From a virus, in IMG/VR virus record IMGVR_UViG_3300028376_000003, positions 64,001-128,000 of that record: 64,000 bases of DNA. One strand, 5' to 3'. Numbering within the stretch: the stretch's first letter is position 1; every line of letters starts with the position of its first letter. Both the position numbers and the translations under genes were made by a program. Shown here piece after piece: positions 25,011 through 42,876 of the stretch. The notes under the pieces are model-generated. The model was given only the letters and a program-made list of their open reading frames with translations, ran no database searches and was not told the DNA's origin.

Positions 25011-25343
25011 TTATTTAGGTAATTTCATATCACTTGTTACTTCAATCTTAAATCCAAGTCCTGTGCTTTCATCAGAACCATACTTAGTCTCAGAGTGATA
25101 TCCATTATCAGAATGAAATGTTATTGGTTTAGCACCATGCATCTTTTGCTTATCCTTTTCCTCTTTTTCTTTAAGCATTTCCTCAAATGTTAGATTATCT
25201 GATTTATTTACACTATTATCTCTTATAGTATCTTGTCTATCAGAGTAACCGTACTTTCTTAGTAGTTCCTCTGCCTCTTGTCCAGTTACTTCCCTTTCAC
25301 TTTCAACTCTTTGTCCTTCTATTTGTCTTGTAGTAGCTCTCAT
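25011..25343 (-). CDS. Hypothetical protein
   Basis: 110 aa; TTAATATATA immediately upstream. Confidence 0.7.
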   Translation of the reverse strand: MRATTRQIEGQRVESEREVTGQEAEELLRKYGYSDRQDTIRDNSVNKSDNLTFEEMLKEKEEKDKQKMHGAKPITFHSDNGYHSETKYGSDESTGLGFKIEVTSDMKLPK

Positions 25344-25478
25344 ATCATATATATTAAAATAATATCTTTGTTAATTATATCTTAAAAATAGTGTGTTAAA
25401 TTAATACATTTCATATATTTGTATAATAAATATCAAAAGAGACAAAACTTTTTTAATATATAGTATATAAACATAAAT

Positions 25479-25551
25479 CGCGGGGTAGAGCAGTAGGTAG
25501 CTCGCTAGGCTCATAACCTAGAGGTCGTTGGTTCGAGTCCAACTCCCGCTA
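25479..25551 (+). tRNA. tRNA-fMet (CAT), initiator type
   Basis: Cloverleaf; C1:U72 mismatch; ctagg-CTCATAA-cctag. Confidence 0.9.
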
Positions 25552-25571
25552 CAAATAAATAAATAAATAAA

Positions 25572-25655
25572 ATGAATACTTTTACTAACATAGAATATTA
25601 TTATGAAGAATCTGAACGAAAACGCTCGGCTAGTCTTTTGATGTCTATAATGTAA
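25572..25655 (+). CDS. Attenuator leader peptide 1 (MNTFTNIEYYYEESERKRSASLLMSIM)
   Basis: 27-codon ORF with GAA TAT TAT TAT GAA GAA TCT GAA, directly before a terminator and tRNA-Tyr/tRNA-Glu. Confidence 0.8.
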   Translation: MNTFTNIEYYYEESERKRSASLLMSIM

Positions 25656-25672
25656 ATTAAATTATAGTATAA

Positions 25673-25709
25673 AAAAAACCCAGTCTAGTAATATAGACTG
25701 GGTTTTTTG
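25673..25709 (+). terminator. Attenuator terminator 1
   Basis: aaaaaacccagtcta-gtaata-tagactgggtttttt. Confidence 0.9.
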
Positions 25710-25721
25710 TTTTAAAAATAT

Positions 25722-25804
25722 GGGGGTAATATGGCACAGGTAGTCATGTCGGTCTGTAAAACCGATTCCGAAAGGTATTGTGGGTTCGAGTCCCACTACG
25801 CCCA
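25722..25804 (+). tRNA. tRNA-Tyr (GTA)
   Basis: tcggt-CTGTAAA-accga, long variable arm, gtggg-TTCGAGT-cccac; one acceptor mismatch. Confidence 0.85.
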
Positions 25805-25814
25805 CTTAGTACAT

Positions 25815-25887
25815 GCTCCGTTCGTCTAGTGGACTAGGACCCCAGGCTTTCAACTTGGTAACGGGAGTTCAATTCTCCCACGGAGTA
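25815..25887 (+). tRNA. tRNA-Glu (TTC)
   Basis: ccagg-CTTTCAA-cttgg; canonical cloverleaf. Confidence 0.9.
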
Positions 25888-25969
25888 CTAGTTTTAATAT
25901 TGTTTAAAATAGGATTATAATAATATAATGCTTATATTTGCCTATTATTTAATTTTAAAAAGCTTTTAA

Positions 25970-26134
25970 ATGGAAAAAAACACAATACAAGATTTTAAGT
26001 GTGTATATGTTTATAGAACTGGTAAAAAAATACATGAATGTGTATTTAAAGCCTACAATGTTGAGCAAGCTAAGACACATTTTTCGTTTTTTTATCCGAA
26101 AAGGATATTGAAAGAAATTGAATTACAAAAATAA
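25970..26134 (+). CDS. Small hypothetical protein (MEKNTIQDFKCVYVY...)
   Basis: 54 aa ORF read from the sequence, after promoter at 25933. Confidence 0.5.
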   Translation: MEKNTIQDFKCVYVYRTGKKIHECVFKAYNVEQAKTHFSFFYPKRILKEIELQK

Positions 26135-26140
26135 ATTATT

Positions 26141-26359
26141 ATGGTTTTAAAAATAGAGATAGAAGGAATTGGCGAATTCGACATAAAACATGATTTGTTA
26201 CATCGAGGTAATCGACCAAGACTGAAAACTTACCATAAAGGGATATTTAGAGAAGTATCTTTTAATAGTTTTGAAGACTATCTAAATCCTACCTATCAGA
26301 GAGGATTTGATTATGAAGGAACAGAAATACAGATTAAAATTTTAGAAAATACAGATTAA
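26141..26359 (+). CDS. Hypothetical protein
   Basis: 72 aa ORF. Confidence 0.6.
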   Translation: MVLKIEIEGIGEFDIKHDLLHRGNRPRLKTYHKGIFREVSFNSFEDYLNPTYQRGFDYEGTEIQIKILENTD

Positions 26360-26406
26360 TTTAAGAGGGAGAGTAAACTTTTAATATATAGTGTAATATA
26401 ACAATT

Positions 26407-26481
26407 ATGAGAACAATTAATAACATAGCAATAATAGCGATAGGCAAAGGGAAAACTCATTGGCTGGGAATTGTTATGTAA
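26407..26481 (+). CDS. Attenuator leader peptide 2 (MRTINNIAIIAIGKGKTHWLGIVM)
   Basis: 24 codons with ATA GCA ATA ATA GCG ATA GGC AAA GGG, before a terminator and tRNA-Ile(UAU)/Gly/Gly/Ala. Confidence 0.82.
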   Translation: MRTINNIAIIAIGKGKTHWLGIVM

Positions 26482-26504
26482 TTAATTTAATTATAAATTA
26501 TCAT

Positions 26505-26533
26505 AAACCCAGTCAGAAATGACTGGGTTTTTT
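26505..26533 (+). terminator. Attenuator terminator 2
   Basis: aaacccagtca-gaaa-tgactgggtttttt; 5' arm also pairs with tggctggg (26461-26468). Confidence 0.9.
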
Positions 26534-26547
26534 ATTTTATTATAAAT

Positions 26548-26621
26548 TGGTATGTAGCTTAGATGGTAAAAGCACATGGCTTATATCCATGAGATAGTGG
26601 GTTCGATACCCATCATACCAA
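26548..26621 (+). tRNA. tRNA-Ile (TAT)
   Basis: catgg-CTTATAT-ccatg; acceptor tggtatg/catacca. Confidence 0.88.
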
Positions 26622-26629
26622 CAAAATAA

Positions 26630-26703
26630 GCAGGTAACGCATAAGTGATGGTGCACTAGCCTTCCAAGCTAGAATAGAATCGGTTTGATCCCGATTACCT
26701 GCT
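26630..26703 (+). tRNA. tRNA-Gly (TCC)
   Basis: ctagc-CTTCCAA-gctag; U73. Confidence 0.82.
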
Positions 26704-26714
26704 CGATATAAAAT

Positions 26715-26788
26715 GCAAATGTAGCTCAATTGGCTAGAGTGTCTGATTTCCATTCAGAAAGTTGTAGGTTCGAATCCTATCATTTGCT
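26715..26788 (+). tRNA. tRNA-Gly (TCC)
   Basis: tctga-TTTCCAT-tcaga; U73. Confidence 0.88.
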
Positions 26789-26795
26789 CATTAAT

Positions 26796-26873
26796 GGGGG
26801 ATTAGCTCAGTCTGGTCGTAAGCGATAGCTTTGCAAGCTGTGTCATACATCGGTTCAAATCCGATATCCTCCA
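26796..26873 (+). tRNA. tRNA-Ala (TGC)
   Basis: atagc-TTTGCAA-gctgt; G3:U70 identity pair. Confidence 0.88.
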
Positions 26874-27165
26874 CAGCTTAATTAAAAAAAACAATAATTA
26901 TAGAAGATTTGAGTGCGAGATAGATAGAGAGAGGAGTAATTACTAAATTTGCATCAGATGAATTGGAGAAGTTGTCTAAAAATCATCAGGCTAGAAAATA
27001 TCAAAGCTTCACTATAGATAGGTGAGTTGTTGATATTGTGGACATGTCACCGATTTCTAAGCTAACAAATTCAGTAGATGTGATAGTTTATGGTGGTGAT
27101 TCATTAATGGAGATTTCTTAGAAACATATTAATAATATATATATAGAGAAAATGTACATATTATT

Positions 27166-27921
27166 ATGATTATAAGATTTAGAAGTAGAGGAGAAAAAGT
27201 TAAGGATTTACAAAACTTGTTAGGACTAAAACCTGATGGTATATTTGGTCCTAACACTTTGAAAGCTTTGAAGAATTTTCAAAGAGATAATGGATTAAGC
27301 GTAGATGGTATAGTTGGTCCTAATACTTGGTCTGTTTTAGTAAAAAACGATAAGAATAGAATAAGACCAATTTACGATGTTGATCTAAACGAAGAAGATT
27401 CTGTATCTGATCCAGAGTGTATGTTCTGTGTAGAAGATATTGAGGAAACACAACCTTTGTCCCCTAGTACAAGGGAACTTATAAACCTAATAGAATCTAG
27501 TGATATTACTAGGAATATAAAAAGGCTTGTTTTCCATTGTACTGCAACATCTCAAAAAGCTACTGTATCTGCCATTGTGAATTATTGGAAGAATACACTT
27601 GGGTGGCGTTCACCAGGTTATCATATAATTGTTAGGCCAGATGGAACTTGGAATCAACTACTAGACTTTAACAGAGTCTCTAATGGTGTTCGTGGTATCA
27701 ATTCTACTACTATAAATATATCATATATTGGTGGTGTTGACCGAAATGGTAGAGCATTGGATAATAGAACTAAAAAGCAAAAGGATGTCTATGAAACCAT
27801 TTATAGAGCTTTTAAGCATAAATTACCTAGAATAACATTTCATGGACATAATGAATTTTCATCAAAAGCATGTCCATCTTTTAATGTTAAAAATTGGATA
27901 AAGTCTTTAAGAGTAATTTAA
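27166..27921 (+). CDS. Endolysin: peptidoglycan-binding domain plus N-acetylmuramoyl-L-alanine amidase (T7 lysozyme type)
   Basis: DGIFGPNT/DGIVGPNTW repeats; HCTAT, GYH, YIGG, GHNEF, KACPSF. Confidence 0.92.
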   Translation: MIIRFRSRGEKVKDLQNLLGLKPDGIFGPNTLKALKNFQRDNGLSVDGIVGPNTWSVLVKNDKNRIRPIYDVDLNEEDSVSDPECMFCVEDIEETQPLSPSTRELINLIESSDITRNIKRLVFHCTATSQKATVSAIVNYWKNTLGWRSPGYHIIVRPDGTWNQLLDFNRVSNGVRGINSTTINISYIGGVDRNGRALDNRTKKQKDVYETIYRAFKHKLPRITFHGHNEFSSKACPSFNVKNWIKSLRVI

Positions 27922-28049
27922 TTAGTATATATTTGCATAGTAAGAATTCTAAAAGAAAGAAAAATTATAATATTATTTTACTATATATCATGATGTTGCA
28001 TGTTTTTAGATGAATTAACAACACTAATCACTTAATAATACAAATCTAT

Positions 28050-28478
28050 ATGACCACAATTCAAACAAATAATATAATTAACTTTTATTTCAATATTAGC
28101 ACTGAATGTGGTATTGATATATTACATCTATCACCAAGCTATCTTAGAGAAAAGTGGATACTCCATATAGGAACTGATATTGAAAATAATAATATAACCA
28201 AAAGTGTTAAGTTGGATACTTGGACTAAAATATGGGGTGTTACTGATAAAAATACAACATCAATATATTATATAATTCTAGAATTAAATTCAGTTCCACT
28301 AAGGGAAGCTAATATAACGTCTGTAGTTAATAAAATTATTCCTTATATTGATGAAAATAAGATAAACAAAGAAGAATATAATGGTTTACACCCATCAATA
28401 AATAGTTGTAAGGATCAATGGATGATGAAGAAAGAAAACAAAAGATACTTAAATATTCAAATGTTATTGAATGACTGA
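28050..28478 (+). CDS. Hypothetical protein
   Basis: 142 aa ORF. Confidence 0.65.
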   Translation: MTTIQTNNIINFYFNISTECGIDILHLSPSYLREKWILHIGTDIENNNITKSVKLDTWTKIWGVTDKNTTSIYYIILELNSVPLREANITSVVNKIIPYIDENKINKEEYNGLHPSINSCKDQWMMKKENKRYLNIQMLLND

Positions 28479-28501
28479 TATTTATATATAAGAGAAAAAC
28501 A

Positions 28502-28957
28502 ATGAAATTAAGAAAGACTATAGCAACCACAATGAGAGGATATCTTAATGAGAATAATAGTAATGAAAGTCATTTTTTATCTGAAAGTGAAAAATATGGC
28601 TCTTATGAAGGTATTATTCATTCTGATATAGAAAAAGTCAAGAATTAGTTCTCAAAACGAGGTATTGACTACAATTCATATCTTAATCAAATTGAACTAC
28701 CTGTAGCATTTTTAAACAATATAAATGTAGAATTAAAATATAGAGGAAAGGGATATGGTGATGAACTATATTTTGATTTTGAACAGAATTGTTATTATTA
28801 TAACACTAAATGCATAATATTAGAAAGTGATAGTGGCGAATCACAGAAGAAAGGTTTTAATTTGGACAATTGGTATGAAATCTTAGACTATGAGATAATT
28901 GGGGAAGAAAGTGGTAATTCAATTATGAAAAAAAAATTAATTAGTTCACAACGATGA
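28502..28957 (+). pseudogene. GNAT acetyltransferase interrupted by an in-frame TAG at 28646
   Basis: MKLRKTIATTMRGYLNE...KVKN*FSKRG...NINVELKYRGKGYGDELY; frame continuous across the stop. Confidence 0.7.
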
Positions 28958-29018
28958 TGGTGATAATAGTGCTTTACTTAATTCTGATTATGAAATGATA
29001 ATTATTTAAAAATAAATT

Positions 29019-29240
29019 ATGGGACTATACGATACAGTAAAAGTACCTTGCCCTTCATGTGGTGAGAAGAAAGATTTTCAAAGTAAGAGTGGTGATGGTT
29101 TTTTAGAAGTAGTTGATTTAGAAAACTGCCCATATGATATACTAGTAGGCGTAAACAGACATTCACCCCATACTTGTAAGTGTGGAGAAATATTTAAAGT
29201 GGATTTAAATACTAGAAAAAGTGTAAAAACAGAAAAATAG
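29019..29240 (+). CDS. Small Zn-ribbon-like protein
   Basis: MGLYD..CPSCG...FQSK...CKCG. Confidence 0.7.
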   Translation: MGLYDTVKVPCPSCGEKKDFQSKSGDGFLEVVDLENCPYDILVGVNRHSPHTCKCGEIFKVDLNTRKSVKTEK

Positions 29241-29497
29241 ACTATGATAATGTCCCAAATATCTATTAAATAAGGGACTTTAAAAATTAGGTAATTTTAT
29301 ACATTGTTGTGCAGAGTAGGTTATTAATTTAATTATGAGATGAGTAGTATTAATTATATAAAAAATACAACTTATTATCTGTTTGTAAGTATAAGTGTGT
29401 AAGTGCTACTTATGATAAACTTCTAATATCACAAACAATCAATTTTAATAAAAGCATATACTAGAAAATAGAAAATAAAAAATAATAAATTAAATAT

Positions 29498-30733
29498 ATG
29501 AATAACACATCAATTATAGATTCATTTACTGAGCTTAAGTCAGACAAAATGATTAATAAAATAGAGATAATGGAAATCCTAGACTCTGTTTTTAGATTTG
29601 AGTTTAGAAAAAAATATGATACAGATGAAAACTTTGATATAATTCTAAACCCAGATAACGGAGATTTAGAAATATGGCAAAACAAAATCGTTGTACAAGA
29701 TGGCGAGGTTGAAAACCACAATACTGAAATAGAAATTTCAGAAGTTCTTAAGGTGGAGTCAGATTTTGAAATAGGGGAAGAATATCCACAAGAATTCAAA
29801 ATATCAGAATTAGGAAGAAGATCTATATTAAGTTTAAGACAGAATCTAAAGGCTAGAATAAAAGACTACGAAAATAAATCAACAATAGAGAAGTTTGAAG
29901 ATATGATTGGATATATTTTCAATGCCGAAGTCCATCACATAAAAAGAAATATGGTTATATTACTAGATGATGAGGGTATTGAAATTTGTTTACCAAAAGA
30001 TAATCAGATACCTGGTGAGTTTTACAGAAAAGGTGATACAATATCATTTGTGGTAGAAGAAGCTGAAATTAGAAACAATAAGCCATACATTATTGCATCA
30101 AGAACATCAAGTAAGTTTCTAGAAAGAATAATGGAACAAGAAATACCTGAAATATTCGATGGTCTAATAAATATAAAGAACATAGTTAGAGTACCTGGTA
30201 TTAAAGCTAAGGTAGCAGTGGAAACATATGATGATAGAATTGATCCTGTTGGAACTTGTGTTGGTAGTAGAGGAAGTCGAATAATGGCAGTTACTAGAGA
30301 GCTAAATGGTGAGAGTATAGATATCATAAGCTACACAAATAATATGGATTTATATATAACTAGGTCGTTAAAACCAGCCGTTGTTAAATTTATAAAGGTA
30401 GAAGATGGTAAAGCTGACGTTCATTTAAATGGTGAAGATATTGGTAAGGCTATTGGTAAGAAAGGTTCTAATATAAGATTAACTAGCTTACTTACTGGTC
30501 TAGAAATAAATCTTATAAATGATGAGCAAGCTACAGAGGAAGATATAGATCTTATGGAATTTTCTGATGAAGTTGATTTATGGGTAATAAATGAATTTAA
30601 AAAAGCTGGTATAGATACTGCTAAATCATTACTATCTTATGGTTTTAGTGAACTTGTAAATATGACAGATTTAGAGGATGTGACTATTGAGAAGATAATA
30701 AAAATAATCAAACAAGAATTTGTTGATAGTTAA
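29498..30733 (+). CDS. nusA: Transcription termination/antitermination factor NusA
   Basis: NTD, S1 and KH domains; EIPEIFDG, IDPVGTCVGSRGSRI, AIGKKGSNIRL. Confidence 0.95.
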   Translation: MNNTSIIDSFTELKSDKMINKIEIMEILDSVFRFEFRKKYDTDENFDIILNPDNGDLEIWQNKIVVQDGEVENHNTEIEISEVLKVESDFEIGEEYPQEFKISELGRRSILSLRQNLKARIKDYENKSTIEKFEDMIGYIFNAEVHHIKRNMVILLDDEGIEICLPKDNQIPGEFYRKGDTISFVVEEAEIRNNKPYIIASRTSSKFLERIMEQEIPEIFDGLINIKNIVRVPGIKAKVAVETYDDRIDPVGTCVGSRGSRIMAVTRELNGESIDIISYTNNMDLYITRSLKPAVVKFIKVEDGKADVHLNGEDIGKAIGKKGSNIRLTSLLTGLEINLINDEQATEEDIDLMEFSDEVDLWVINEFKKAGIDTAKSLLSYGFSELVNMTDLEDVTIEKIIKIIKQEFVDS

Positions 30734-30742
30734 AACAAAATA

Positions 30743-30970
30743 ATGTCAAATAGAAACTATAAAATAGATAAGGAAATCGAGGTAACACTTAAAGTTAAAG
30801 TAAAGATTAATTCTTGCAATGACTATAATAGGTTGAACGAATTACAAATAGAAAATAATGTATCTGATTTTAAAAATGATATTAAAGAACATCTGCTAGA
30901 TAAGCTAAGAAATAGCTATCAAGAAGAAGTTACAATAGGTATTGATTTTTGGGATTATGAAGTAGATTAA
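30743..30970 (+). CDS. Hypothetical protein
   Basis: 75 aa ORF. Confidence 0.6.
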   Translation: MSNRNYKIDKEIEVTLKVKVKINSCNDYNRLNELQIENNVSDFKNDIKEHLLDKLRNSYQEEVTIGIDFWDYEVD

Positions 30971-31029
30971 TTAAATACCATAAAATACTTGTATAATATT
31001 TTTTATTTGTATATTTGTAAAAAAATAAT

Positions 31030-31299
31030 ATGAAAACTTTTAAGAAATCATTTATTATAATAGGACTTGGCGTACTTAACATACTACATGCTAGCCTTCA
31101 TATATTTCAATTTGTTCAATCTTTTATGCTTGTAAAGGCATCTATAGAACTACAAGACACATCAACAAATCACAGTGGTTTATTTTCAGATTTACTACAC
31201 AGTCCATATTTTACAATAGTTTGGGCATTAGTAGGCATCTTGACCTTATACATCGGTATCAAGGATTTTATTCATCATAAAAAATGTAAAAATGGGTAG
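31030..31299 (+). CDS. Small membrane protein (two TM helices)
   Basis: Two hydrophobic segments; promoter at 31010. Confidence 0.65.
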   Translation: MKTFKKSFIIIGLGVLNILHASLHIFQFVQSFMLVKASIELQDTSTNHSGLFSDLLHSPYFTIVWALVGILTLYIGIKDFIHHKKCKNG

Positions 31300-32197
31300 T
31301 TTTAATATAATATGTTCAATATCTAATACAGTCATAAGTGACGGCGATAGAGCAAGTATTCAGATATTAGTCCCTGGTGGAAGTGAAAATTTCAATTCAC
31401 ATAAGAACATAATTGTATCAGAAAGTGGTACACAAGAGTTCTTCTCACCATTTGGGTTTCCAATAAATGGTCGATATGATAGCTATGGAAGATTAAGACA
31501 TATAGAAAATGACATAAATGTAGAAATGTTAGAAAAATTCTTTAACATAAATATATATGAATTACTTAATCTAATACATTCTAGTAGTAGAACTTATGAT
31601 GAAGAGGTTAAAAACACAGACATAATTGACAATTTGTTCATATCTTTTTTTAGAACAGAAGTCATTGACTACATAGACAATGGAAGCCTAGATATAAATA
31701 TTGACAACCCCGAAGAATATACTAGAGGTGCTTACATAAAAAGTATTTTAGATGGTATTGATGATTATAACATAACAAACATATCAGAAAGAATATCATA
31801 TATTGAAAGTATGGCAGAAGCTGATATTACAGAAGAAATTTCGAAAGAGTTTTTTGATTTAATAAGAAAACAAACTACAAGAAAAAAGACATATATTCAA
31901 TCATTATGGCAATATAATATGTTTGAATTGCTACCAATTGATTTAATATTTAAAGACTATATAATTAAACAATATAATCTTATTTCAACGATGACAAATG
32001 AATTGAAAGTATTATTGAGACCAAGCTTATATGGATCACAAGAAGGTGATGATTTATATAGATACAAATTTAATAAAGAAATAAATAATCTAATCATTAA
32101 TGATTTAGAATCAGAATCAGAATGGTTAGATGGTGAAGAAAAATCCATTATAAAGACACATAATCGATCTGTCAAACTAGACAAATTGTATTCATAG
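31292..32197 (+). CDS. Hypothetical protein
   Basis: 301 aa; MGSFNIICSISN...PINGRYDSYGR; ends NRSVKLDKLYS. Confidence 0.75.
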   Translation: MGSFNIICSISNTVISDGDRASIQILVPGGSENFNSHKNIIVSESGTQEFFSPFGFPINGRYDSYGRLRHIENDINVEMLEKFFNINIYELLNLIHSSSRTYDEEVKNTDIIDNLFISFFRTEVIDYIDNGSLDINIDNPEEYTRGAYIKSILDGIDDYNITNISERISYIESMAEADITEEISKEFFDLIRKQTTRKKTYIQSLWQYNMFELLPIDLIFKDYIIKQYNLISTMTNELKVLLRPSLYGSQEGDDLYRYKFNKEINNLIINDLESESEWLDGEEKSIIKTHNRSVKLDKLYS

Positions 32198-32461
32198 ATG
32201 AAATTTAATAAAGAAGATAGCCTTATTGGTATGCATTTTGTATACATGTCTGGATATGATAAGAATCCTAAATTTGATAAGATAATAAAACTCGTTGAAC
32301 CAGTAGGTTTAACTATACAAGAATTTATAAATAAAGCTTATTATCCTATAGATTCATATGTAATTTCACAAAATGGCATAAGGTACGAAATGAGAGAGAT
32401 AAAGCTAACTCCAATTAGTGAAATTAGAAAAAACAGATTAAAAAAATTAGGAATTAAATAG
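32198..32461 (+). CDS. Hypothetical protein
   Basis: 87 aa; ends IRKNRLKKLGIK. Confidence 0.65.
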   Translation: MKFNKEDSLIGMHFVYMSGYDKNPKFDKIIKLVEPVGLTIQEFINKAYYPIDSYVISQNGIRYEMREIKLTPISEIRKNRLKKLGIK

Positions 32462-32477
32462 ATATATGTAATTAGTT

Positions 32478-32915
32478 ATGGCAGAACTTAAAAAGAAAAG
32501 AAAACGTTATAGATTAAATACATTTTTCTACATTGAAGTATATGATATAGCAGCACTTAGGAGTAAAAAACTAAATAAAGTAATGGGATTAGATAATAAC
32601 ATAAGACCCACCTATTTTAGTACACTAAGTAGAAATACTTCTATAAAGAATATATATCTTTCTAGCTTTTGGAAGAAGAAACAAAGTGCTATCAACCAAA
32701 AGGCTGCTATGAAAGAAATGTGTGATAAAAAGAATCTAACTATGGAAATAATCGAAATTAATAGATTAGAGTTTATAAAATTAATACCGCTAAAAGTACC
32801 AGAGTGTTCAAAATGGGATATGGGATTATACATAATTAATATAGGCATTGTGCGTGATGAGAAAGCATATATGGAAACATTAAAGTGTAGGGAAATAGAC
32901 AACATTAATGAATAA
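32478..32915 (+). CDS. Hypothetical protein (possible paralogue of 32908)
   Basis: FYIEVY..LRSKKL..NIYLSSFW versus YYIEMY..RRLRI..NIYFALFF in the neighbour. Confidence 0.65.
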   Translation: MAELKKKRKRYRLNTFFYIEVYDIAALRSKKLNKVMGLDNNIRPTYFSTLSRNTSIKNIYLSSFWKKKQSAINQKAAMKEMCDKKNLTMEIIEINRLEFIKLIPLKVPECSKWDMGLYIINIGIVRDEKAYMETLKCREIDNINE

Positions 32916-33324
32916 TCAAAATAAGACACGAATTAGATATCTATATTATATAGAAATGTACACACTTGTACAATATAGAAGATTAAGGATTGCTCAAGTG
33001 TTGTCTCATCAAACAGAAACATTAGAGACCCTTTACTATAATGGACCTAGGGGATATATCGAACCCCAAAATAATATATACTTTGCCTTATTTTTTAGAA
33101 GTTCAGAAAGTGCAAGGAAGTGTATAAACCTAGTTAGTGAGAATAACTACAAAAATTTTCAATTTATTATTAACAAAATTAGTTCGACTGACTTTGTTAA
33201 TATAATACCAACTACAAAACCATTTAGGATAAACACAAGTCTTACATCAAGATACTACTATAGAAATAACCTAGGGCTAAGAAATGTTGAACTAACTCAC
33301 TTAAAAGAATTAAATTTAAAATAA
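32908..33324 (+). CDS. Hypothetical protein (possible paralogue of 32478)
   Basis: 138 aa ORF. Confidence 0.65.
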   Translation: MNNQNKTRIRYLYYIEMYTLVQYRRLRIAQVLSHQTETLETLYYNGPRGYIEPQNNIYFALFFRSSESARKCINLVSENNYKNFQFIINKISSTDFVNIIPTTKPFRINTSLTSRYYYRNNLGLRNVELTHLKELNLK

Positions 33325-33334
33325 TTAATACACT

Positions 33335-33709
33335 ATGGAAAGCATGGATACAAATATTAAAGACATTATAAGAGGTATTAAAATTGATATAGTTAATAAT
33401 AGATATAAATGTATATCAGCATACAAAATACCAAAAGACGTTGAGCATTGGTTGAATTGTCCAATTTGTGATTTAAAGCCACTTATATGGGAATTTAATA
33501 ATGGATCTTCTACTGGTTGTGGCTGTGGTGAAAACCAATACAGAAACTTTAGTATTGTGACAGAATCTATAATGTCACATATAAGTAGAAATAATGGATC
33601 TGCACTTAATTATGACCATCGTAAATTGAAAAATAACTGGAATCATTGGGTATGTACTAGAGAAGAACTAGAAACACACAAAGGATTATTAGAAGAGGGT
33701 AAGTGGTAG
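33335..33709 (+). CDS. Hypothetical Cys-containing protein
   Basis: CPIC...CGCG. Confidence 0.65.
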   Translation: MESMDTNIKDIIRGIKIDIVNNRYKCISAYKIPKDVEHWLNCPICDLKPLIWEFNNGSSTGCGCGENQYRNFSIVTESIMSHISRNNGSALNYDHRKLKNNWNHWVCTREELETHKGLLEEGKW

Positions 33710-33710
33710 T

Positions 33711-34052
33711 TTATTCCACAATATCTTCTGCTGTTTCTGATAGTGCTATACAAGCCTTTGCAGTTTCTTCGTGTTTAAACTCTAAACACCTATCAGCACA
33801 ATAAACAGAACTTTCAAATACCAAATCCGATATATTAGAGAGATGGTGTGATTTATTCTCAAGTGCATACACAAAAGCTTCACATATCTTAATAAACTCT
33901 CCTAGGTCTACTGAAAAGGCTTTAACTTTAGTCTTTTCCATTGACTTATTTAGTAACTCTATACAGCTATTAACATCATCTATTAGCTGAGAGTTATCAT
34001 TTACCTCCTCTGTTTCTTCATTCTGTTCTAAAAACTTTTTAAGATGTATCAT
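33711..34052 (-). CDS. Probable capsid-internal protein
   Basis: N-terminus MIHLKKFLE; TTAATATATA upstream. Confidence 0.6.
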   Translation of the reverse strand: MIHLKKFLEQNEETEEVNDNSQLIDDVNSCIELLNKSMEKTKVKAFSVDLGEFIKICEAFVYALENKSHHLSNISDLVFESSVYCADRCLEFKHEETAKACIALSETAEDIVE

Positions 34053-34168
34053 TATAATTTATTTATTTACTTATATATTAAATATTTACATAGTAAACAG
34101 ATACAAATGTTAAAGTATCCTTTTTATATAAACTTTTCCATAGGTATGTATATATTAATAAAGAAACT

Positions 34169-34840
34169 ATGGTAGAGTTATTACATTTTGATATAGAAAC
34201 CACAAGTGAGTATGAAAACTTCGAATCATTTAAGGAAAACGATGAGAGGGGATCAGCTTTATTTGAAGCCAAATGCAAAAAAATGAATTGGATAGAAAAG
34301 TGTGGGAGTATAGAGCAAGCATACATTGAAAATGGTGGGATAATATCAACATATGGTAAGATAATATGTATATCATTTGGATTTACCGTTAACGGAGAAA
34401 AAAGAATAAAATCGTTATACTCTGATAATGAAAAGGATTTAGTCAATAAGTTCAATGAATCTCTAAAATACATAGAAAAAAAAGCTTTTCATTTATGTGG
34501 ATTCAGGATAAAACATTTTGATATTCCTTGGATATTACACAAATTACATAAATATGGTATAGAGCCAGTTGATATGATATATGTATATGATAAGAAACCA
34601 TGGGAGATGAGAGTAGCTGATATGTCTGATGATTGGAAAACTGGTTACTTATTATCACATACCTTTGATGAAATGTGTTATGAATTAGGTGTGGAATCCC
34701 CTAAGAATGAACTAGATGGTTCTAAAGTCCATAAAGCATACTGGTCTGGTAATTTAGATTCAGTTGTAAAATACTGCGAATCAGATGTTTCATCATCAAT
34801 TGATGCTGGGATTAAACTATATAAACATTATAAACATTAG
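34169..34840 (+). CDS. 3'-5' exonuclease (PolB-exonuclease-like, DEDDy)
   Basis: FDIET, GKIICISFG, FDIPW, YCESDV. Confidence 0.85.
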   Translation: MVELLHFDIETTSEYENFESFKENDERGSALFEAKCKKMNWIEKCGSIEQAYIENGGIISTYGKIICISFGFTVNGEKRIKSLYSDNEKDLVNKFNESLKYIEKKAFHLCGFRIKHFDIPWILHKLHKYGIEPVDMIYVYDKKPWEMRVADMSDDWKTGYLLSHTFDEMCYELGVESPKNELDGSKVHKAYWSGNLDSVVKYCESDVSSSIDAGIKLYKHYKH

Positions 34841-34842
34841 AT

Positions 34843-35283
34843 ATGGGAGAAAAAATCACAAAAGGAGATTTATTTTTATTTACATCACATTATGATAATG
34901 GTCGTTCAGTCCATTACTATGGTTCACTTGTAGAAATAATTGGTATTGCAAGTAATAGCATAATGATGGTAACTGGTGAAGGAGATTTAAACACTAAAGA
35001 GAAATTGCTTATAAGAATAATAAAGGATAGTAACTTTAAAGACATTGATTCTAGTAAATTTTCTAAAACGCTTGTAAAAGATTTAAAAATTAAATTTAAA
35101 TTTAATCTAGAAAATGATACCATTGAAGCAGATTCACATGATGTGCACAAGATAAATATAGACTATGGATTAGTTGAAATTGATAAAAAAATAGATAGGC
35201 TTTTAAAAGAGAAAACTCTTTACAATGACTTTCATATCAGGACAAGAAAGCTAAGGAAATTATTAGATGATTCTAATGACTAG
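34843..35283 (+). CDS. Hypothetical protein
   Basis: 146 aa; ends IRTRKLRKLLDD. Confidence 0.65.
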   Translation: MGEKITKGDLFLFTSHYDNGRSVHYYGSLVEIIGIASNSIMMVTGEGDLNTKEKLLIRIIKDSNFKDIDSSKFSKTLVKDLKIKFKFNLENDTIEADSHDVHKINIDYGLVEIDKKIDRLLKEKTLYNDFHIRTRKLRKLLDDSND

Positions 35284-35822
35284 TTATTCTCAAATGGACT
35301 TATCTTAGAATCTATCAAAGACATCAATTCATTGTGTGTTTGTGATAGATTCCTTGATACTAAACCATCTAAAATAAATCTAGTTTCTGTCACATACTTG
35401 CTGACAAATTTATCACTACCTTGTTCTAAATCTGAGCAATTGTGTAATCTATCAGCTAACTTTATAACAAGAGCATAACTAGTCATATTTAGCATTTTAT
35501 CTAATAAATACTCTGATTTACCTACCTTCTCTATTTTGTTATTATCAGATGTAAGTTCTTCTACTATACTACTGACCATTTTTCCAAACTCTTCTTCTAT
35601 ATTACTAATAGTAACATCACAATCTTCAACAGTGTCGTGAAGTAATGCCGCAATACAAATTAGCTCCTTATTTTTACTCACCTTGACCTCCCTAACTATT
35701 TTGCTTACTGCAATTGGGTGCCATGCATATTCTTTGCCAGAAAATTTTCTAAACTGTCCATCGTGTGCCTCTATCATAAATAATAGAGCCTTTCTTAGCT
35801 TTGTTTCTTTTTTAGTTTTCAT
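35280..35822 (-). CDS. Stand-alone RelA/SpoT-type HD hydrolase (small alarmone hydrolase/Mesh1-like)
   Basis: AHDGQFRK.SG.EY..HP, AALLHDTVED, FG..V..IVEELT, IKLADRLHN. Confidence 0.88.
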   Translation of the reverse strand: MKTKKETKLRKALLFMIEAHDGQFRKFSGKEYAWHPIAVSKIVREVKVSKNKELICIAALLHDTVEDCDVTISNIEEEFGKMVSSIVEELTSDNNKIEKVGKSEYLLDKMLNMTSYALVIKLADRLHNCSDLEQGSDKFVSKYVTETRFILDGLVSRNLSQTHNELMSLIDSKISPFENN

Positions 35823-35918
35823 AGTTGTCATATATATTAAACAAATATAACCTTTTTATTTGATATATACAACAGGGGAGATATATACTTTTATATATAT
35901 AATAAAATATAAAAAATC

Positions 35919-36077
35919 ATGGGTACAAAGAATAAAATGTTTTCATTTAGAATACCACCAAAATTATTAGAAGAATATCACGAAATGTGTGATGAGAACT
36001 CAATAAACATATCAAAAAGGATTAGAAAGTTCATTGAGCGTGATTTAGAAGGATGGAGAAATAAGAAAAAGGAATAA
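35919..36077 (+). CDS. Ribbon-helix-helix DNA-binding protein
   Basis: MGTKNKMFSFRIPPKLLEEYHEMCDENSINISKRIRKFIE, 52 aa, below the track cutoff. Confidence 0.7.
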   Translation: MGTKNKMFSFRIPPKLLEEYHEMCDENSINISKRIRKFIERDLEGWRNKKKE

Positions 36078-36187
36078 ATTTAATAAAATATTTCATAAAT
36101 ACTTTAATAATTCGAAATATATTCAGTATGTTTGTATCATATAATTTACTACAGATAATAGTATTATGAACAAACAAAGAAGTTATT

Positions 36188-36424
36188 ATGAAAAATCTTA
36201 AAAAATGGTTTAGAAATTTATCAATTACTAACCTTGCTCACTACTACTGGCTAAAAATAAGAGAAGAATCAAAAGATAGACATGGTGAAAAATTATGTTA
36301 TTGTGGACACACTAATAAATGTAGTTGTGATGACCCAGATAAACAAACTTTTAAAGATTCTGTAAAAAGAGGAACTATAATTATATTTGATAAAAAGAAC
36401 GGTTGGAAAACTTCCAAAAAATAA
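36188..36424 (+). CDS. Hypothetical protein
   Basis: 78 aa; CYCGHTNKCSC. Confidence 0.6.
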   Translation: MKNLKKWFRNLSITNLAHYYWLKIREESKDRHGEKLCYCGHTNKCSCDDPDKQTFKDSVKRGTIIIFDKKNGWKTSKK

Positions 36425-36443
36425 ATGTAATAAATATAAAACT

Positions 36444-36653
36444 ATGGAATCTAATAAAAAAGAAACTAATGGGATATTGTCAGTAGTTCTAAATGTTTTC
36501 CTAGTAGCTACAGAAAATAGGCTAATAAGCTTCGCTATCAAAAATAAAGAATTAAGCCCTGAGCAGACTAGTTATATAGAGTCTGAATACGGCAAAATAG
36601 AATCTATCGAAGATGGTAGTAGTGGGTTCACTAAAACTGTTATATACATTTAA
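36444..36653 (+). CDS. Hypothetical protein
   Basis: ORF 36387..36653; probable ATG start at MESNKK. Confidence 0.5.
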   Translation: MESNKKETNGILSVVLNVFLVATENRLISFAIKNKELSPEQTSYIESEYGKIESIEDGSSGFTKTVIYI

Positions 36654-36664
36654 TAAAATGAACT

Positions 36665-36859
36665 ATGTTAATTAGAAAAATGTATACCTTGTACATAAAT
36701 ACAACACTTAGAACTGCATACTTTGGTAATCTAAAGTTTGGATGTAGAATAGGTGGTGCAAAGTTTGGTAAAGTAATTGATTGTAATTTATCTGATTTGA
36801 AACACAACCTAAGAATACTAGCAGAAGAAAATTATTTAATTAATAAACGCACGTATTAA
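36665..36859 (+). CDS. Hypothetical protein
   Basis: 64 aa ORF in a tandem run. Confidence 0.5.
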   Translation: MLIRKMYTLYINTTLRTAYFGNLKFGCRIGGAKFGKVIDCNLSDLKHNLRILAEENYLINKRTY

Positions 36860-36860
36860 A

Positions 36861-37208
36861 ATGAAAATAACAAAAGGAACATTCAAATATACTGGTATTA
36901 ACGATATAGATATTGACTTAGTCACAGACAAGTGGAATCATTTATGGATGCTTGCTGAGTGGAAAGTAGACAATTCTTGGAAAATAGTCAAATATATTAG
37001 AAAAGACTCTCAAAATACCGAGATAAAGCTAACGATATCATGTGAACAAGCAACTGAACTTATTAAAAACCTTGGCTTAATTAATATTAATACTGGGTTT
37101 CAAAGTGGTTACTCTTGGAGGACTAAAAAGGATATGGTGTATTTAGAGAACTGGAGATTGGCAAGACATAAGAAATTACAGACCAAATTAATAACAAACA
37201 ACTTTTAA
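36861..37208 (+). CDS. Hypothetical protein
   Basis: 115 aa ORF. Confidence 0.6.
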   Translation: MKITKGTFKYTGINDIDIDLVTDKWNHLWMLAEWKVDNSWKIVKYIRKDSQNTEIKLTISCEQATELIKNLGLININTGFQSGYSWRTKKDMVYLENWRLARHKKLQTKLITNNF

Positions 37209-37211
37209 ATT

Positions 37212-37478
37212 ATGAAAGATACATTTAGATACTTCATCAGAAAGAACTTCTCTGAGATTGGCGAAATAAGCAATGAGGATATTGATGAAATCGGAATTGA
37301 ATTTCACAAGTACTTGGATAGCAAATTAAATGATGACCAAAAGGCTAAAATACTACCAAAAAGTGCGATTGATGTAATAATGAATAGCGACCACCCACTT
37401 AAAACAAACGGATTTGAGCCAGCATATATGCTACATTTTACACAATGGACAAAGGAACAAAGTGAATCGCAAGACTAG
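37212..37478 (+). CDS. Hypothetical protein
   Basis: 88 aa ORF. Confidence 0.6.
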   Translation: MKDTFRYFIRKNFSEIGEISNEDIDEIGIEFHKYLDSKLNDDQKAKILPKSAIDVIMNSDHPLKTNGFEPAYMLHFTQWTKEQSESQD

Positions 37479-37543
37479 TTAAATGTTTTTATAAATTTTT
37501 TGGCTATTAGCTTCTATATTTACACAATAATAATAATAAAACA

Positions 37544-37765
37544 ATGAATAAAGACAATAATTCTATTATAGATACTAATGTACCTCTTTTTAAGTATATC
37601 GAGATTAAGGATTATGACAATGATAGTGTTGTTAAGCGACTAGATGTAAGCGATAAATCCGATAGGCGTATAGATACTATCGAAAGTGGGATTGATATAA
37701 ACTTAAACCATGACCAATACTATACGTTTAGTCATGATAGTGAAGTTGAATTAGAACTCATATGA
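37544..37765 (+). CDS. Hypothetical protein
   Basis: 73 aa ORF. Confidence 0.6.
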   Translation: MNKDNNSIIDTNVPLFKYIEIKDYDNDSVVKRLDVSDKSDRRIDTIESGIDINLNHDQYYTFSHDSEVELELI

Positions 37766-37794
37766 AAATAAATTTAAATCTTTTTAAAAAACAC

Positions 37795-37905
37795 TTGTGA
37801 GAAACAAATATTAGTTATATATTTGCACAGAACCTAAAATAATTTAAACTTTTAGTAAAAAAAAGAATATAAATAACCAAAGGAAGAAATAAAATTTAAT
37901 ATATA
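37795..37905 (+). promoter_or_regulatory. Stacked promoter cassette (TTG-N20-TATATTTG; AAACTTTT-N14-TATAAA; TTAATATATA)
   Basis: Motifs at 37795-37825, 37846-37873, 37896-37905; near-duplicate at 42504-42613. Confidence 0.65.
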
Positions 37906-37911
37906 ATAGTG

Positions 37912-38031
37912 ATGAAAAATTTAAACCTAAATACAAATAGAAACTTAACGCTCAATGTGGTGAATATTATGTTATGTAATAGACCATCTAGGGGTTCTAG
38001 TGTATTTAATAAATTTCATCTTATGACATAG
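37912..38031 (+). CDS. Attenuator leader peptide 3 (MKNLNLNTNRNLTLNVVNIMLCNRPSRGSSVFNKFHLMT)
   Basis: Codons 3-24 encode only N/L/T/R/V/I/M/C, the amino acids of the 11 downstream tRNAs. Confidence 0.82.
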   Translation: MKNLNLNTNRNLTLNVVNIMLCNRPSRGSSVFNKFHLMT

Positions 38032-38054
38032 TGAAATAAAAAATACAAATAACT

Positions 38055-38090
38055 AAAACCCCTAGAAATGAAAATTCTAGGGGTTTTTTT
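38055..38090 (+). terminator. Attenuator terminator 3
   Basis: aaaacccctagaa-atgaaaa-ttctaggggttttttt; 5' arm also pairs perfectly with tctaggggtt (37987-37996). Confidence 0.9.
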
Positions 38091-38097
38091 GTTTTAT

Positions 38098-38182
38098 GCT
38101 AGTGTGGTGGAATGGTAGACACGAGGGATTCAAAATCCTTTAATCAGAAATGATTATATGAGTTCAAATCTCATCATTAGTA
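38098..38182 (+). tRNA. tRNA-Leu (CAA)
   Basis: aggga-TTCAAAA-tcctt, long variable arm. Confidence 0.88.
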
Positions 38183-38194
38183 CATATATTACAA

Positions 38195-38268
38195 TCCTCG
38201 TTAGCTCAGTGGTCAGAAGCTCTCGTCTGTTAAACGAAAGGTCGGTGGTTCGAATCCACCACGAGGAG
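38195..38268 (+). tRNA. tRNA-Asn (GTT)
   Basis: ctcgt-CTGTTAA-acgaa; G73. Confidence 0.9.
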
Positions 38269-38276
38269 CAAATAAT

Positions 38277-38358
38277 CGGCATATACCAGCCCAAGCTGAT
38301 ACCTTGGAGAACTGTAGTTGGTAAGTTGAAAACGTAGGTTCGAGTCCTACTGTGCCGA
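38277..38358 (+). tRNA. Atypical tRNA-Ile (GAT): no D-arm, 26-nt variable region
   Basis: cggcata/tgtgccg acceptor, 7-nt linker, ccaag-CTGATAC-cttgg, gtagg-TTCGAGT-cctac. Confidence 0.7.
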
Positions 38359-38372
38359 CTTTTATGACACTT

Positions 38373-38457
38373 GTCGGAGTGGTGGAATGGCAGACACGCT
38401 GGGTTTAAGCTCCAGTGGGCAGTGATGTCCGTGAGGGTTCGAGTCCCTTCTCCGATA
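38373..38457 (+). tRNA. tRNA-Leu (TAA)
   Basis: ctggg-TTTAAGC-tccag, long variable arm. Confidence 0.88.
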
Positions 38458-38466
38458 CGAATAAAT

Positions 38467-38556
38467 GCCAGTGTGGTGAAATTGGATGAAACACGCTAGT
38501 CTTAGGAACTAGTACCCAAGAGGTAAACATTGTCGGTTCGAGTCCGACCACTGGTA
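38467..38556 (+). tRNA. tRNA-Leu (TAG)
   Basis: ctagt-CTTAGGA-actag. Confidence 0.88.
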
Positions 38557-38566
38557 CAAAATAAAT

Positions 38567-38647
38567 GCCTTAGTAGTCCCGATTGTCTTCTAAACAATTA
38601 AGGGTAATTGGAAGCTGAAAATATAGGTTCGAGTCCTATCTAGGGTA
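38567..38647 (+). tRNA. Atypical tRNA-Arg (TCT): no D-arm, 24-nt variable region
   Basis: gccttag/ctagggt acceptor, 8-nt linker, attgt-CTTCTAA-acaat, atagg-TTCGAGT-cctat. Confidence 0.7.
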
Positions 38648-38656
38648 CAAATAAAA

Positions 38657-38730
38657 AGTTCTGTAATTCAGGGGTTCAGAATGCTTCCCTTACAAGGAAG
38701 AAGTCGTTGGTTCGAATCCAACCAGAACTA
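38657..38730 (+). tRNA. tRNA-Val (TAC)
   Basis: cttcc-CTTACAA-ggaag. Confidence 0.9.
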
Positions 38731-38736
38731 CAAAAT

Positions 38737-38808
38737 GTACCTATGACCGAGTGATTTAGGTAGGTGGCTGCAACCCATCGTACGGGGGTTTGAATCCCTC
38801 TAGGTACT
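38737..38808 (+). tRNA. tRNA-Cys (GCA)
   Basis: ggtgg-CTGCAAC-ccatc; U73. Confidence 0.88.
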
Positions 38809-38815
38809 CTAATAT

Positions 38816-38888
38816 GCTGACATAGCTCAATTGGTAGAGCATTTGATTTGTAATCAAAAGGTTGTGGGTTCGAAGCCCTCTGTCAGCT
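38816..38888 (+). tRNA. tRNA-Thr (TGT)
   Basis: tttga-TTTGTAA-tcaaa. Confidence 0.9.
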
Positions 38889-38898
38889 CTGAAAAAAT

Positions 38899-38988
38899 GC
38901 ACTAGTGGCGAAGTGGATGAAACGCATCAGACTTAAAATCTGATACCCTTTGAGGTGAACAACGTGGGTTCAAATCCCACCTGGTGTA
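38899..38988 (+). tRNA. tRNA-Leu (TAA), second copy
   Basis: tcaga-CTTAAAA-tctga, long variable arm. Confidence 0.88.
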
Positions 38989-38992
38989 CTAA

Positions 38993-39078
38993 ATCGCTAT
39001 GAACAGATGTGGTAATTGTGCTTGGCTCATATCCAAGTTAGAGAAATCTTATTGTTGGTTCAAGTCCAACTAGCGGTA
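38993..39078 (+). tRNA. tRNA-Met (CAT), elongator or Ile2, with long variable arm
   Basis: cttgg-CTCATAT-ccaag; acceptor atcgcta/tagcggt. Confidence 0.75.
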
Positions 39079-39080
39079 CA

Positions 39081-39120
39081 AAAAAAGAGGGGATATAATT
39101 AATTATATCCCCTCTTTTTT
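39081..39120. terminator. Bidirectional terminator
   Basis: aaaaaagaggggatataattaattatatcccctctttttt, a perfect palindrome. Confidence 0.88.
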
Positions 39121-39132
39121 ATATTATTTGTT

Positions 39133-39564
39133 TTATTTATTTTTAAGACTTTCTATATCATCCCTTATCTCATCTATATCATCTAAAGATATATCATCCA
39201 AATCTTTACCAGCATCACCAGTATTATCTGTTACTACAGGAATAACATCTTCTATCCCTTTATCTATTTCCTTAGCAATGTAATCATCCCCTGCAATACT
39301 CTCTCTTTCTATTTGTAAACAGAACTGTGCTAATACTGCTAAATCATCATTTTTCTGTGCTAAATCGAATACTTTGCTATTAAGTTCATATTTTGACATA
39401 CCTCTAAATTTCTTTCTAGTATAGTAGTCATAGAAATCTTGCTCTTCTCTAGACATAACATTAGATGGTTTTCTATCAATACCAAATATCTCTGTCTTTT
39501 TAGCTTTTGCAGTTACTGCTTCGCTCACTTTTTTATTGTTAAAGTCTTTATATTTTTTTATCAT
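39133..39564 (-). CDS. Probable capsid-internal protein
   Basis: MIKKYKDFNNKKVSE N-terminus; TTAATATATA upstream. Confidence 0.6.
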   Translation of the reverse strand: MIKKYKDFNNKKVSEAVTAKAKKTEIFGIDRKPSNVMSREEQDFYDYYTRKKFRGMSKYELNSKVFDLAQKNDDLAVLAQFCLQIERESIAGDDYIAKEIDKGIEDVIPVVTDNTGDAGKDLDDISLDDIDEIRDDIESLKNK

Positions 39565-39582
39565 ACTCTTATATATTAATTT

Positions 39583-40218: not shown

Positions 40219-40234
40219 TATTATTCTTTTTTTT

Positions 40235-42460: not shown

Positions 42461-42503
42461 AACTCTATATATTAAAAAAGATTATTTTAATTTAAAAAAA
42501 ACC

Positions 42504-42613
42504 TTGTATAAACCATTTATTTATATTATATTTGCATAGAAATAATATAATTCTAAACTTTTATAAAAAAAAGTCTATAAATAACCATAGAGAGAAATAA
42601 AAGTTAATATATA
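42504..42613 (+). promoter_or_regulatory. Stacked promoter cassette (TTG-N20-TATATTTG; AAACTTTT-N13-TATAAA; TTAATATATA)
   Basis: Motifs at 42504-42534, 42555-42581, 42604-42613. Confidence 0.65.
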
Positions 42614-42620
42614 AAACATA

Positions 42621-42725
42621 ATGAAAAATTTAAACTTAAACATAGTAGTTAACCCTCAACCCCAAGTTGATATCGATCAGGATTCTGATACGAAAGGTGC
42701 TAACTATGTTTTAAATTTAAGTTGA
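42621..42725 (+). CDS. Attenuator leader peptide 4 (MKNLNLNIVVNPQPQVDIDQDSDTKGANYVLNLS)
   Basis: PQPQVDIDQDSD block before a terminator and (Asp-Gln-Pro)x2 tRNAs. Confidence 0.82.
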   Translation: MKNLNLNIVVNPQPQVDIDQDSDTKGANYVLNLS

Positions 42726-42743
42726 TATTTAAATAATAAAAAC

Positions 42744-42783: not shown

Positions 42784-42791
42784 GTTTATAT

Positions 42792-42864: not shown

Positions 42865-42876
42865 CTAATATTAAAT

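Follow-up and report, generated by a model that had tools for sequence, protein, structure and literature searches.

What does a 27-codon open reading frame (ORF), closed by a U-tailed hairpin, do between an initiator-type tRNA gene and the genes for tRNA-Tyr and tRNA-Glu in a phage genome? A first-pass annotation of this locus (here unit 1) had read it as a Tyr/Glu attenuator with the initiator tRNA placed upstream of the switch. That reading gains support from three directions, namely conservation of the arrangement in 37 related loci, a match between leader codons and downstream tRNAs that extends over nine classes of unit, and two compensatory changes in the proposed antiterminator. We consider unit 1 to be probably a bivalent (Tyr and Glu) leader-peptide attenuator of the ribosome-mediated transcriptional type, gating the phage tRNA-Tyr and tRNA-Glu genes. 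Its anatomy, codon match, conservation, covariation and fold feasibility were computed, and from these we infer translation of the ORF, stalling, termination and read-through.

Phage setting and layout of the unit

The window (the whole stretch of 64,000 nt that was analysed) comprises bases 64001-128000 of one 141.5-kb contig of 28.7% G+C, whose genetic code is the standard one, 85% of its length being covered by 114 ORFs of 120 codons or more. In the phage collection the contig comes closest to LR745206.1, the record of an uncultured phage of 634 kb, and related contigs from IMG/VR and JGI metagenomes reach 385-628 kb. A Shine-Dalgarno motif (GGAG, GAGG or AGGA at −18 to −5) precedes 0 of the contig's 113 long ORFs, the background being 4.6%, and the regions 5' of these ORFs are 45-67% A; judged from these upstream regions, translation initiation in the contig is Shine-Dalgarno-free, as in Bacteroidota. 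TAnnTTTG boxes were found at the heads of transcription units, and from the missing Shine-Dalgarno motifs, the A-rich upstream regions and these boxes together, which fit a Bacteroidota-type host, we infer such a host.

Many sequencing runs of DNA from lakes and salt lakes proved, when searched, to contain the stretch; in RNA runs just 4-6% of its sampled words turned up, probably from conserved parts of tRNAs. Among four DNA runs checked, X3 yielded fragments and X17 nothing. The whole unit stands on a single contig in each of two salt-lake DNA samples (2019 and 2020), these copies departing from the window by two substitutions and one 1-nt deletion at 25671.

Unit 1 runs from two promoter-like motifs through tRNA-Met, a 19-nt A-rich spacer, the 27-codon ORF and the U-tailed hairpin to tRNA-Tyr(GTA) and tRNA-Glu(TTC), as laid out in Table 1. 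ARAGORN, reading of the ORF and folding recovered every feature that the first-pass annotation had listed, in the order and at the positions that it gave.

Table 1. Features of unit 1, in window coordinates
Feature	Position	Strand	Basis
Host-type promoter-like −7 box, TATATTTG (fits TAnnTTTG)	25414-25421	+	Regular expression; putative promoter
Conserved phage promoter-like motif, AAAAGAGAC then AAAACTTTTTTAATATATAG	25436-25466	+	Exact match at 25447-25462; putative promoter
Initiator-type tRNA-Met(CAT), outside and upstream of the switch	25479-25552	+	ARAGORN; Rfam RF00005, 62.7 bits
A-rich spacer without Shine-Dalgarno motif, 5' leader of the ORF	25553-25571	+	Sequence reading; no TAnnTTTG box
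Leader ORF, 27 codons, ATG to TAA	25572-25655	+	Frame kept in 32 of 32 distinct related sequences
Regulatory codons, 3 TAT and 4 GAA in 8 (E Y Y Y E E S E)	25593-25616	+	
Segment 1, predicted anti-antiterminator, pairs with 25634-25648 when the ribosome is absent	25590-25609	+	RNAfold, growing transcripts
Segment 2 (GCUAGUCU), pairs with AGUCUAGU of the terminator 5' arm and loop edge (25682-25689)	25629-25636	+	
Apical hairpin across the stop codon (CUAUAAU with AUUAUAG), tip of the antiterminator	25645-25667	+	
Intrinsic terminator: A-tract, 9-bp stem, 6-nt loop, U-tract	25671-25709	+	
tRNA-Tyr(GTA), sole Tyr tRNA gene of the contig	25722-25805	+	ARAGORN
tRNA-Glu(TTC), sole Glu tRNA gene of the contig	25815-25888	+	ARAGORN; RF00005, 55.6 bits

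The terminator, which the annotation had put at 25673-25709, is where RNA folding also places a hairpin. Its 9-bp stem (25679-25687 with 25694-25702) reaches −14.6 kcal/mol by itself and −21.5 kcal/mol once pairs between the A-tract (25671-25678) and the U-tract (25703-25708) extend it, and the fold of the whole 160-nt region has z = −5.5. The annotation had named an independent promoter 3' of the hairpin as one finding that would tell against its reading; the U-tract ends 13 nt short of tRNA-Tyr, and neither a sigma-70-like nor a TAnnTTTG promoter motif occurs in 25553-25721.

All 20 tRNA genes of the contig called by ARAGORN fall inside the window, and the claim that the initiator gene alone is not behind a terminator held, the other 19 lying behind one of four leader-terminator pairs: that of unit 1 and those of its siblings at 26407-26874, 37912-39079 and 42621-43280. 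Unit 1 is the sole unit of the window with a tRNA, the initiator, between promoter and leader. The siblings, LR745206.1 and the IMG/VR and JGI units described below share with it a cassette of promoter motif, N-terminally related leader, terminator, and tRNAs within about 5-25 nt. In units 1 and 2, as in most relatives, the terminator is of the CCCAGUC...GACUGGG type; units 3 and 4 have other stems.

Some tRNA-like sequences of the window are atypical. The tRNA-Tyr of unit 1 has a G4-G69 mismatch in its acceptor stem, and its best Rfam match is the tRNA-Sec model, at a score under that model's gathering score. Three stretches within the tRNA arrays (26630-26703, 38567-38647 and 42960-43033) were missed by ARAGORN and score 30-44 bits with the Rfam tRNA model, and a tRNA-sized stretch between tRNAs at 38277-38360 has no Rfam match.

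The second promoter-like motif of unit 1 belongs to a contiguous motif of about 30 nt, consisting of a purine-rich GGGAGA-like box, then AAACTTTTT, then AATATATA, that is kept 20-35 nt 5' of initiator tRNAs and of Ile/Gly/Ala leaders in distant relatives. Besides its unit 1 copy, it occurs in the window at 26370-26395, and elsewhere at L036, L049, L096, L100, L126 and about 30 other loci. In about 30 relatives a nearly identical copy lies 25-35 nt 5' of the initiator tRNA. A TAnnTTTG box often precedes the motif, and this host-type box is also found 5' of the initiator tRNA in many relatives. The longer motif may serve as a promoter specific to the phage.

Leader codons and the tRNAs behind them

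Codons 8-15 of the leader ORF are GAA, three times TAT, twice GAA, TCT and GAA. When all six frames of the contig were searched for 8-codon spans with at least seven Tyr/Glu codons, one of 283,002 qualified, and this was the unit 1 core, which lies on the same strand as, and just 5' of, the contig's sole Tyr and Glu tRNA genes; the TAT and GAA codons of the core are those read by the downstream GTA and TTC anticodons. This density (7 of 8 codons) matches that of the densest relatives. The leader starts in an A-rich, Shine-Dalgarno-free context like all 113 long ORFs of the contig, a context that is the norm for this genome and would permit translation.

Might the ORF be a chance one, followed by an ordinary terminator that ends a tRNA-Met unit, with read-through or an unseen promoter supplying the Tyr and Glu tRNAs? 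In a genome of 29% G+C, TAT and GAA are frequent codons, and the enrichment of Tyr and Glu over the whole unit 1 ORF is modest (p = 0.027). Yet the codon cluster is unique in the contig, and all four leaders of the window match their tRNAs, each being enriched for the amino acids of its own cluster (p = 0.027, 6.8e–4, 2.4e–5 and 0.016 for units 1 to 4). No off-diagonal enrichment was seen among these four units except for leader 4 against cluster 3, which arises because leaders 3 and 4 share a duplicated N-terminus. The region downstream of the leader start, furthermore, has no promoter motif, and the two comparative results that follow, a layout kept in 37 related loci and a permutation test over nine classes of unit, weigh on the same side. 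A chance ORF is highly improbable and, for practical purposes, excluded.

The layout of ORF, terminator and downstream Tyr/Glu tRNAs is kept in 37 related huge-phage loci. In LR745206.1 seven Tyr/Glu tRNAs come after, in this order, the promoter motif, an initiator tRNA, a leader that encodes Y E S Y Y E E, and a terminator; an Ile/Gly unit comes next. A scan of metagenomes for Tyr/Glu units returned 34 further units; its pattern demanded Tyr-Tyr-Glu codons, so that the leader cores of these relatives are not independent evidence and only their tRNA content and upstream tRNA-Met are, neither the downstream nor the upstream tRNAs having been demanded. Wherever such a unit had downstream sequence, a Glu or Tyr tRNA came first.

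A scan of IMG/VR that used the terminator stem alone, and was thus blind to leader content, gave 13 matches (12 distinct units) directly 5' of tRNAs in other phage contigs, and in 12 of the 12 units inspected the leader agrees with the downstream tRNAs. Thus a run of five Gln codons precedes three tRNA-Gln genes, a Lys/Tyr leader precedes Lys, Lys and Tyr tRNAs, a Thr/Tyr/Gly/Gln/Pro leader precedes Pro, Gln, Tyr, Thr and Gly tRNAs, and Glu/Ala/Ile/Gly/Tyr leaders precede exactly those tRNAs. A pass over all fetched loci added further classes, among them Ser/Arg and Phe/Lys/His/Trp units. When nine classes were each represented by one unit, the true pairing of leaders with tRNA sets was the single best of the 362,880 permutations (P ~ 3e–6). 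These comparisons indicate that leaders have clearly been recoded on many occasions to fit new tRNA sets.

Other routes to relatives yielded little. All 34 matches to the 18-nt Tyr/Glu core in IMG/VR lie inside ordinary genes, four of them near unrelated tRNA arrays, and were rejected on that ground as chance matches. A search through two neighbouring proteins led to one distant locus without tRNAs and then to nothing. L145, which has an initiator-like tRNA and no phage promoter motif, proved to be unrelated DNA. In two minus-strand units (L216 and L269), about 510 nt past the Tyr/Glu terminator, a tRNA with a CTA anticodon stands among the Tyr/Glu tRNAs, called 'Pyl' by ARAGORN; its amber-reading anticodon hints at TAG recoding in those phages.

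Predicted competing folds of the leader RNA

We mimicked a stalled ribosome by masking the leader between its start codon and a point 14 nt beyond the first Glu codon, and by ending the transcript before the terminator 3' arm. Under this mimic all lineages form one long hairpin (−17 to −24.5 kcal/mol in the relatives), in which a segment inside the ORF (GUCAGACU or GACUGG in the relatives) pairs with the terminator 5' arm, and whose tip, in all related lineages, is a small hairpin around the stop codon. In the window GCUAG-CU of segment 2 pairs with AG-CUAGU, giving seven pairs and one U-U mismatch (alignment columns 15:73), extended by a few A-U pairs and the CUAUAAU/AUUAUAG tip. The first-pass annotation, which had made its reading depend on a feasible alternative fold, had sketched an imperfect helix and doubted how clean it was. 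On both counts it was borne out: with the 5' part of the leader masked, RNAfold returns exactly that helix, and the window version is weak, at −11.8 kcal/mol with z = −1.47 (16 of 200 shuffles were as good), the weakest among those folded (z = −6.2 for L160). Over the full window transcript the terminator state (−27.4 kcal/mol) is about 13 kcal/mol more stable than the antiterminator state (−14.2 kcal/mol), so the antiterminator of the window could act only kinetically. In the E. coli trp leader the 2:3 helix is likewise much weaker than the 3:4 helix, with a similar energy gap in published estimates.

Two double changes in the lineage of the window, U:A to C:G and C:G to U:A, preserve the antiterminator helix. 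They set both rows of this lineage apart from all other rows, at two pairs and on both sides of the helix, and offer the best evidence for the reality of the window antiterminator. Over an 18-sequence alignment (without lineage E), 94.9% of cells of the helix are paired, counted on a hand-defined helix; the apical hairpin of the window is out of register in this alignment, which makes the counts in its columns too low. The helix was defined by hand because RNAalifold gave no consensus over all six leader lineages together, MAFFT having set the lineages out of register. Separately, the last ~13 nt of the leader (CTATGTCGTAATG) are identical in nucleotides and read in different frames by lineage (L036 3206-3292 vs type B, e.g., L160 2280-2360), and are thus conserved as RNA, being the antiterminator tip, not as peptide.

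In untranslated window RNA, segment 1 forms a 1:2 helix that is not significant (−14.4 kcal/mol, z = −1.2) and is predicted only in the lineage of the window, being absent from the relatives. If formed, this predicted helix would make termination the default when the leader is not translated. In relatives, which lack it, untranslated RNA would read through, unlike that of enterobacterial attenuators.

The weakness of the helix raises the alternative that unit 1 is a decayed or fixed member of a true attenuator family, whose segment 2 has drifted so that the hairpin now terminates leakily and for the most part constitutively, the codon match being a legacy no longer in use. The antiterminator energy of the window against that of the relatives, its z against that of L160, and the U-U mismatch all point this way, as does the near identity of the segment-2 region to the terminator 5' arm of unit 4, which suggests recombination. 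On the other hand, the helix is kept by the two compensatory changes; the ORF, the position of its stop and the apical hairpin have all been retained, and samples of different years show a stable unit; the Tyr/Glu cluster is as dense as in any relative; and the energy gap resembles that of the trp leader. We consider such decay unlikely.

A different objection accepts that translation of the leader is sensed and takes the hairpin as an element for processing or stability, such as a nuclease site that would free the tRNA precursor, so that ribosome position would alter tRNA maturation. Processing is needed in any case at the mature 5' end of tRNA-Tyr, and the hairpin does stand 13 nt ahead of it. 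Every unit, though, carries the full signature of an intrinsic terminator (a G+C-rich stem, a U-tract of 6-8 nt and a matching A-tract), and it is the 5' arm, just as in classical attenuators, that the conserved alternative helix engages, making this explanation very unlikely in our estimation.

Initiator tRNA, proposed mechanism and known systems

In the tRNA-Met of unit 1, positions 1 and 72 are mismatched (C1xU72), A11:U24 is present, and of the three G:C pairs beside the anticodon loop two are kept (A29:U41 replaces the third); by these features of its sequence this tRNA is of initiator type as defined for bacteria. Among the 38 Tyr/Glu units with enough upstream sequence, the window counted, 36 have an initiator-like tRNA-Met (C or U at position 1, opposite U72) just 5' of the leader, and the 1:72 mismatch is present in 36 of these 36 genes, that of the window included. 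The placement of the initiator upstream of the switch, noticed in the first-pass annotation for the window, is therefore a conserved design detail of these units. That annotation had explained it by the initiator's shortage escaping a sensor based on elongation stalling; as an argument from logic we find this reasonable.

In ten of the 36 units, including that of the window, the spacer between tRNA-Met and leader is 16-23 nt long and without a promoter motif, so that the leader would be transcribed only through the tRNA gene. The remaining 26 have a spacer of 69-171 nt with a TAnnTTTG box in it; in these units a promoter of its own probably serves the leader as well, and initiator tRNA and leader are thus not always one obligate transcript. 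No hairpin was seen between tRNA and leader in the two longer-spacer relatives read (L036 and L126). Three loci (L057, L154 and L183) have a second, divergent initiator-like tRNA-Met with an unusual D-arm between the first and the Tyr/Glu leader.

The proposed attenuator would work as follows. Transcription would begin at the promoter motifs 5' of the initiator tRNA, which would therefore be made in every round. When TAT and GAA are decoded fast, the ribosome would pass segment 2 and reach the stop codon, located where the 5' strand of the apical hairpin has its 3' edge; there it would open the tip and either cover the two antiterminator strands or part them. With the antiterminator thus blocked, hairpin and U-tract would form and polymerase would halt 13 nt before tRNA-Tyr. 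When charged tRNA-Tyr or tRNA-Glu is scarce, the ribosome would stall at the regulatory codons, and segment 2 with the apical hairpin could pair with the terminator 5' arm before the 3' arm is made, so that polymerase would read through and tRNA-Tyr and tRNA-Glu would be synthesized. The outcome would be negative feedback on decoding capacity for exactly the Tyr and Glu codons.

Enterobacterial leader-peptide attenuators include those of trpL, hisL and pheL and the multivalent thr (Thr/Ile) and ilvGMEDA (Ile/Leu/Val) leaders, and in them ribosome position decides which fold forms. Like these, unit 1 has a short ORF with a codon cluster for more than one amino acid, followed by an intrinsic terminator, and a segment within the ORF that is predicted to pair with the terminator 5' arm. 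Unlike them, it gates tRNA genes instead of those for biosynthetic enzymes, is phage-borne, lacks a Shine-Dalgarno motif and has its stop codon inside the antiterminator tip. Because the genes behind the switch are themselves tRNAs, the molecule sensed and the product are of the same kind. A closer counterpart in function is the pheST attenuator of E. coli (pheM leader), which controls phenylalanyl-tRNA synthetase: there too a component of the translation apparatus is under leader attenuation, as proposed for unit 1, in response to the supply of charged tRNA. The pheST case concerns the protein gene of a synthetase, one amino acid and a bacterial chromosome, whereas unit 1 concerns the tRNA itself, two amino acids and a phage. 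As a precedent among tRNA genes we considered the E. coli tRNA-Phe genes with a Phe-rich leader, and rejected it: upstream of pheV in MG1655 there is a promoter and no leader ORF.

T-box riboswitches bind uncharged tRNA directly, with no need of translation, and share with the proposed attenuator a codon-specific, tRNA-dependent antitermination ahead of genes for aminoacyl-tRNA supply. An RNA of this kind at unit 1, using the codon run as specifiers, would likewise yield codon-specific antitermination ahead of translation-related genes. A search of 25300-43500 at E values up to 1, however, found neither RF00230 (T-box) nor another cis-regulatory Rfam family, save weak chance matches elsewhere in that range. 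The codons, moreover, always sit within an ATG-to-stop frame, in a conserved ORF, with the stop in the apical hairpin, and runs of several codons for at least two amino acids fit stalling and not a single specifier. We give a T-box-like RNA almost no credence.

To our knowledge, the established cases of leader-peptide attenuation concern genes of amino-acid biosynthesis and a synthetase gene, with no tRNA genes among them, and a full-text literature search found no account of it for tRNA genes of phages or cells. The mechanism proposed for unit 1 is classical; new are its target, its feedback logic and its occurrence in a phage. If it is correct, huge phages regulate tRNA genes by a direct read-out of the speed at which specific codons are decoded, by means of a compact, reprogrammable codon sensor. 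This would help to explain why phages carry the particular tRNA sets that they do, and would suggest a phage response to mismatched codon usage or to host defences that cut tRNAs.

More tentatively, the units of the window may together form a codon-resolved supply circuit, in which initiator tRNA is made constitutively and each group of elongator tRNAs only upon stalling at its own codons, perhaps with cross-talk between units; we regard this extension as possible, with considerable doubt. Such a circuit would let the phage detect and repair loss of tRNAs during infection, for example after cleavage by a host anticodon nuclease.

One sequence match links two units of the window. The unit 1 leader at 25625-25639, in the segment-2 region, is the same as the terminator 5' arm of unit 4 (42749-42763) at 14 of 15 positions, suggestive of recombination between units. 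Through this match the unit 1 leader RNA, in its terminated form, is complementary to the 3' arm of the unit 4 terminator (11 of 12 positions, by eye), and it could conceivably pair there in trans and open the Asp/Gln/Pro unit.
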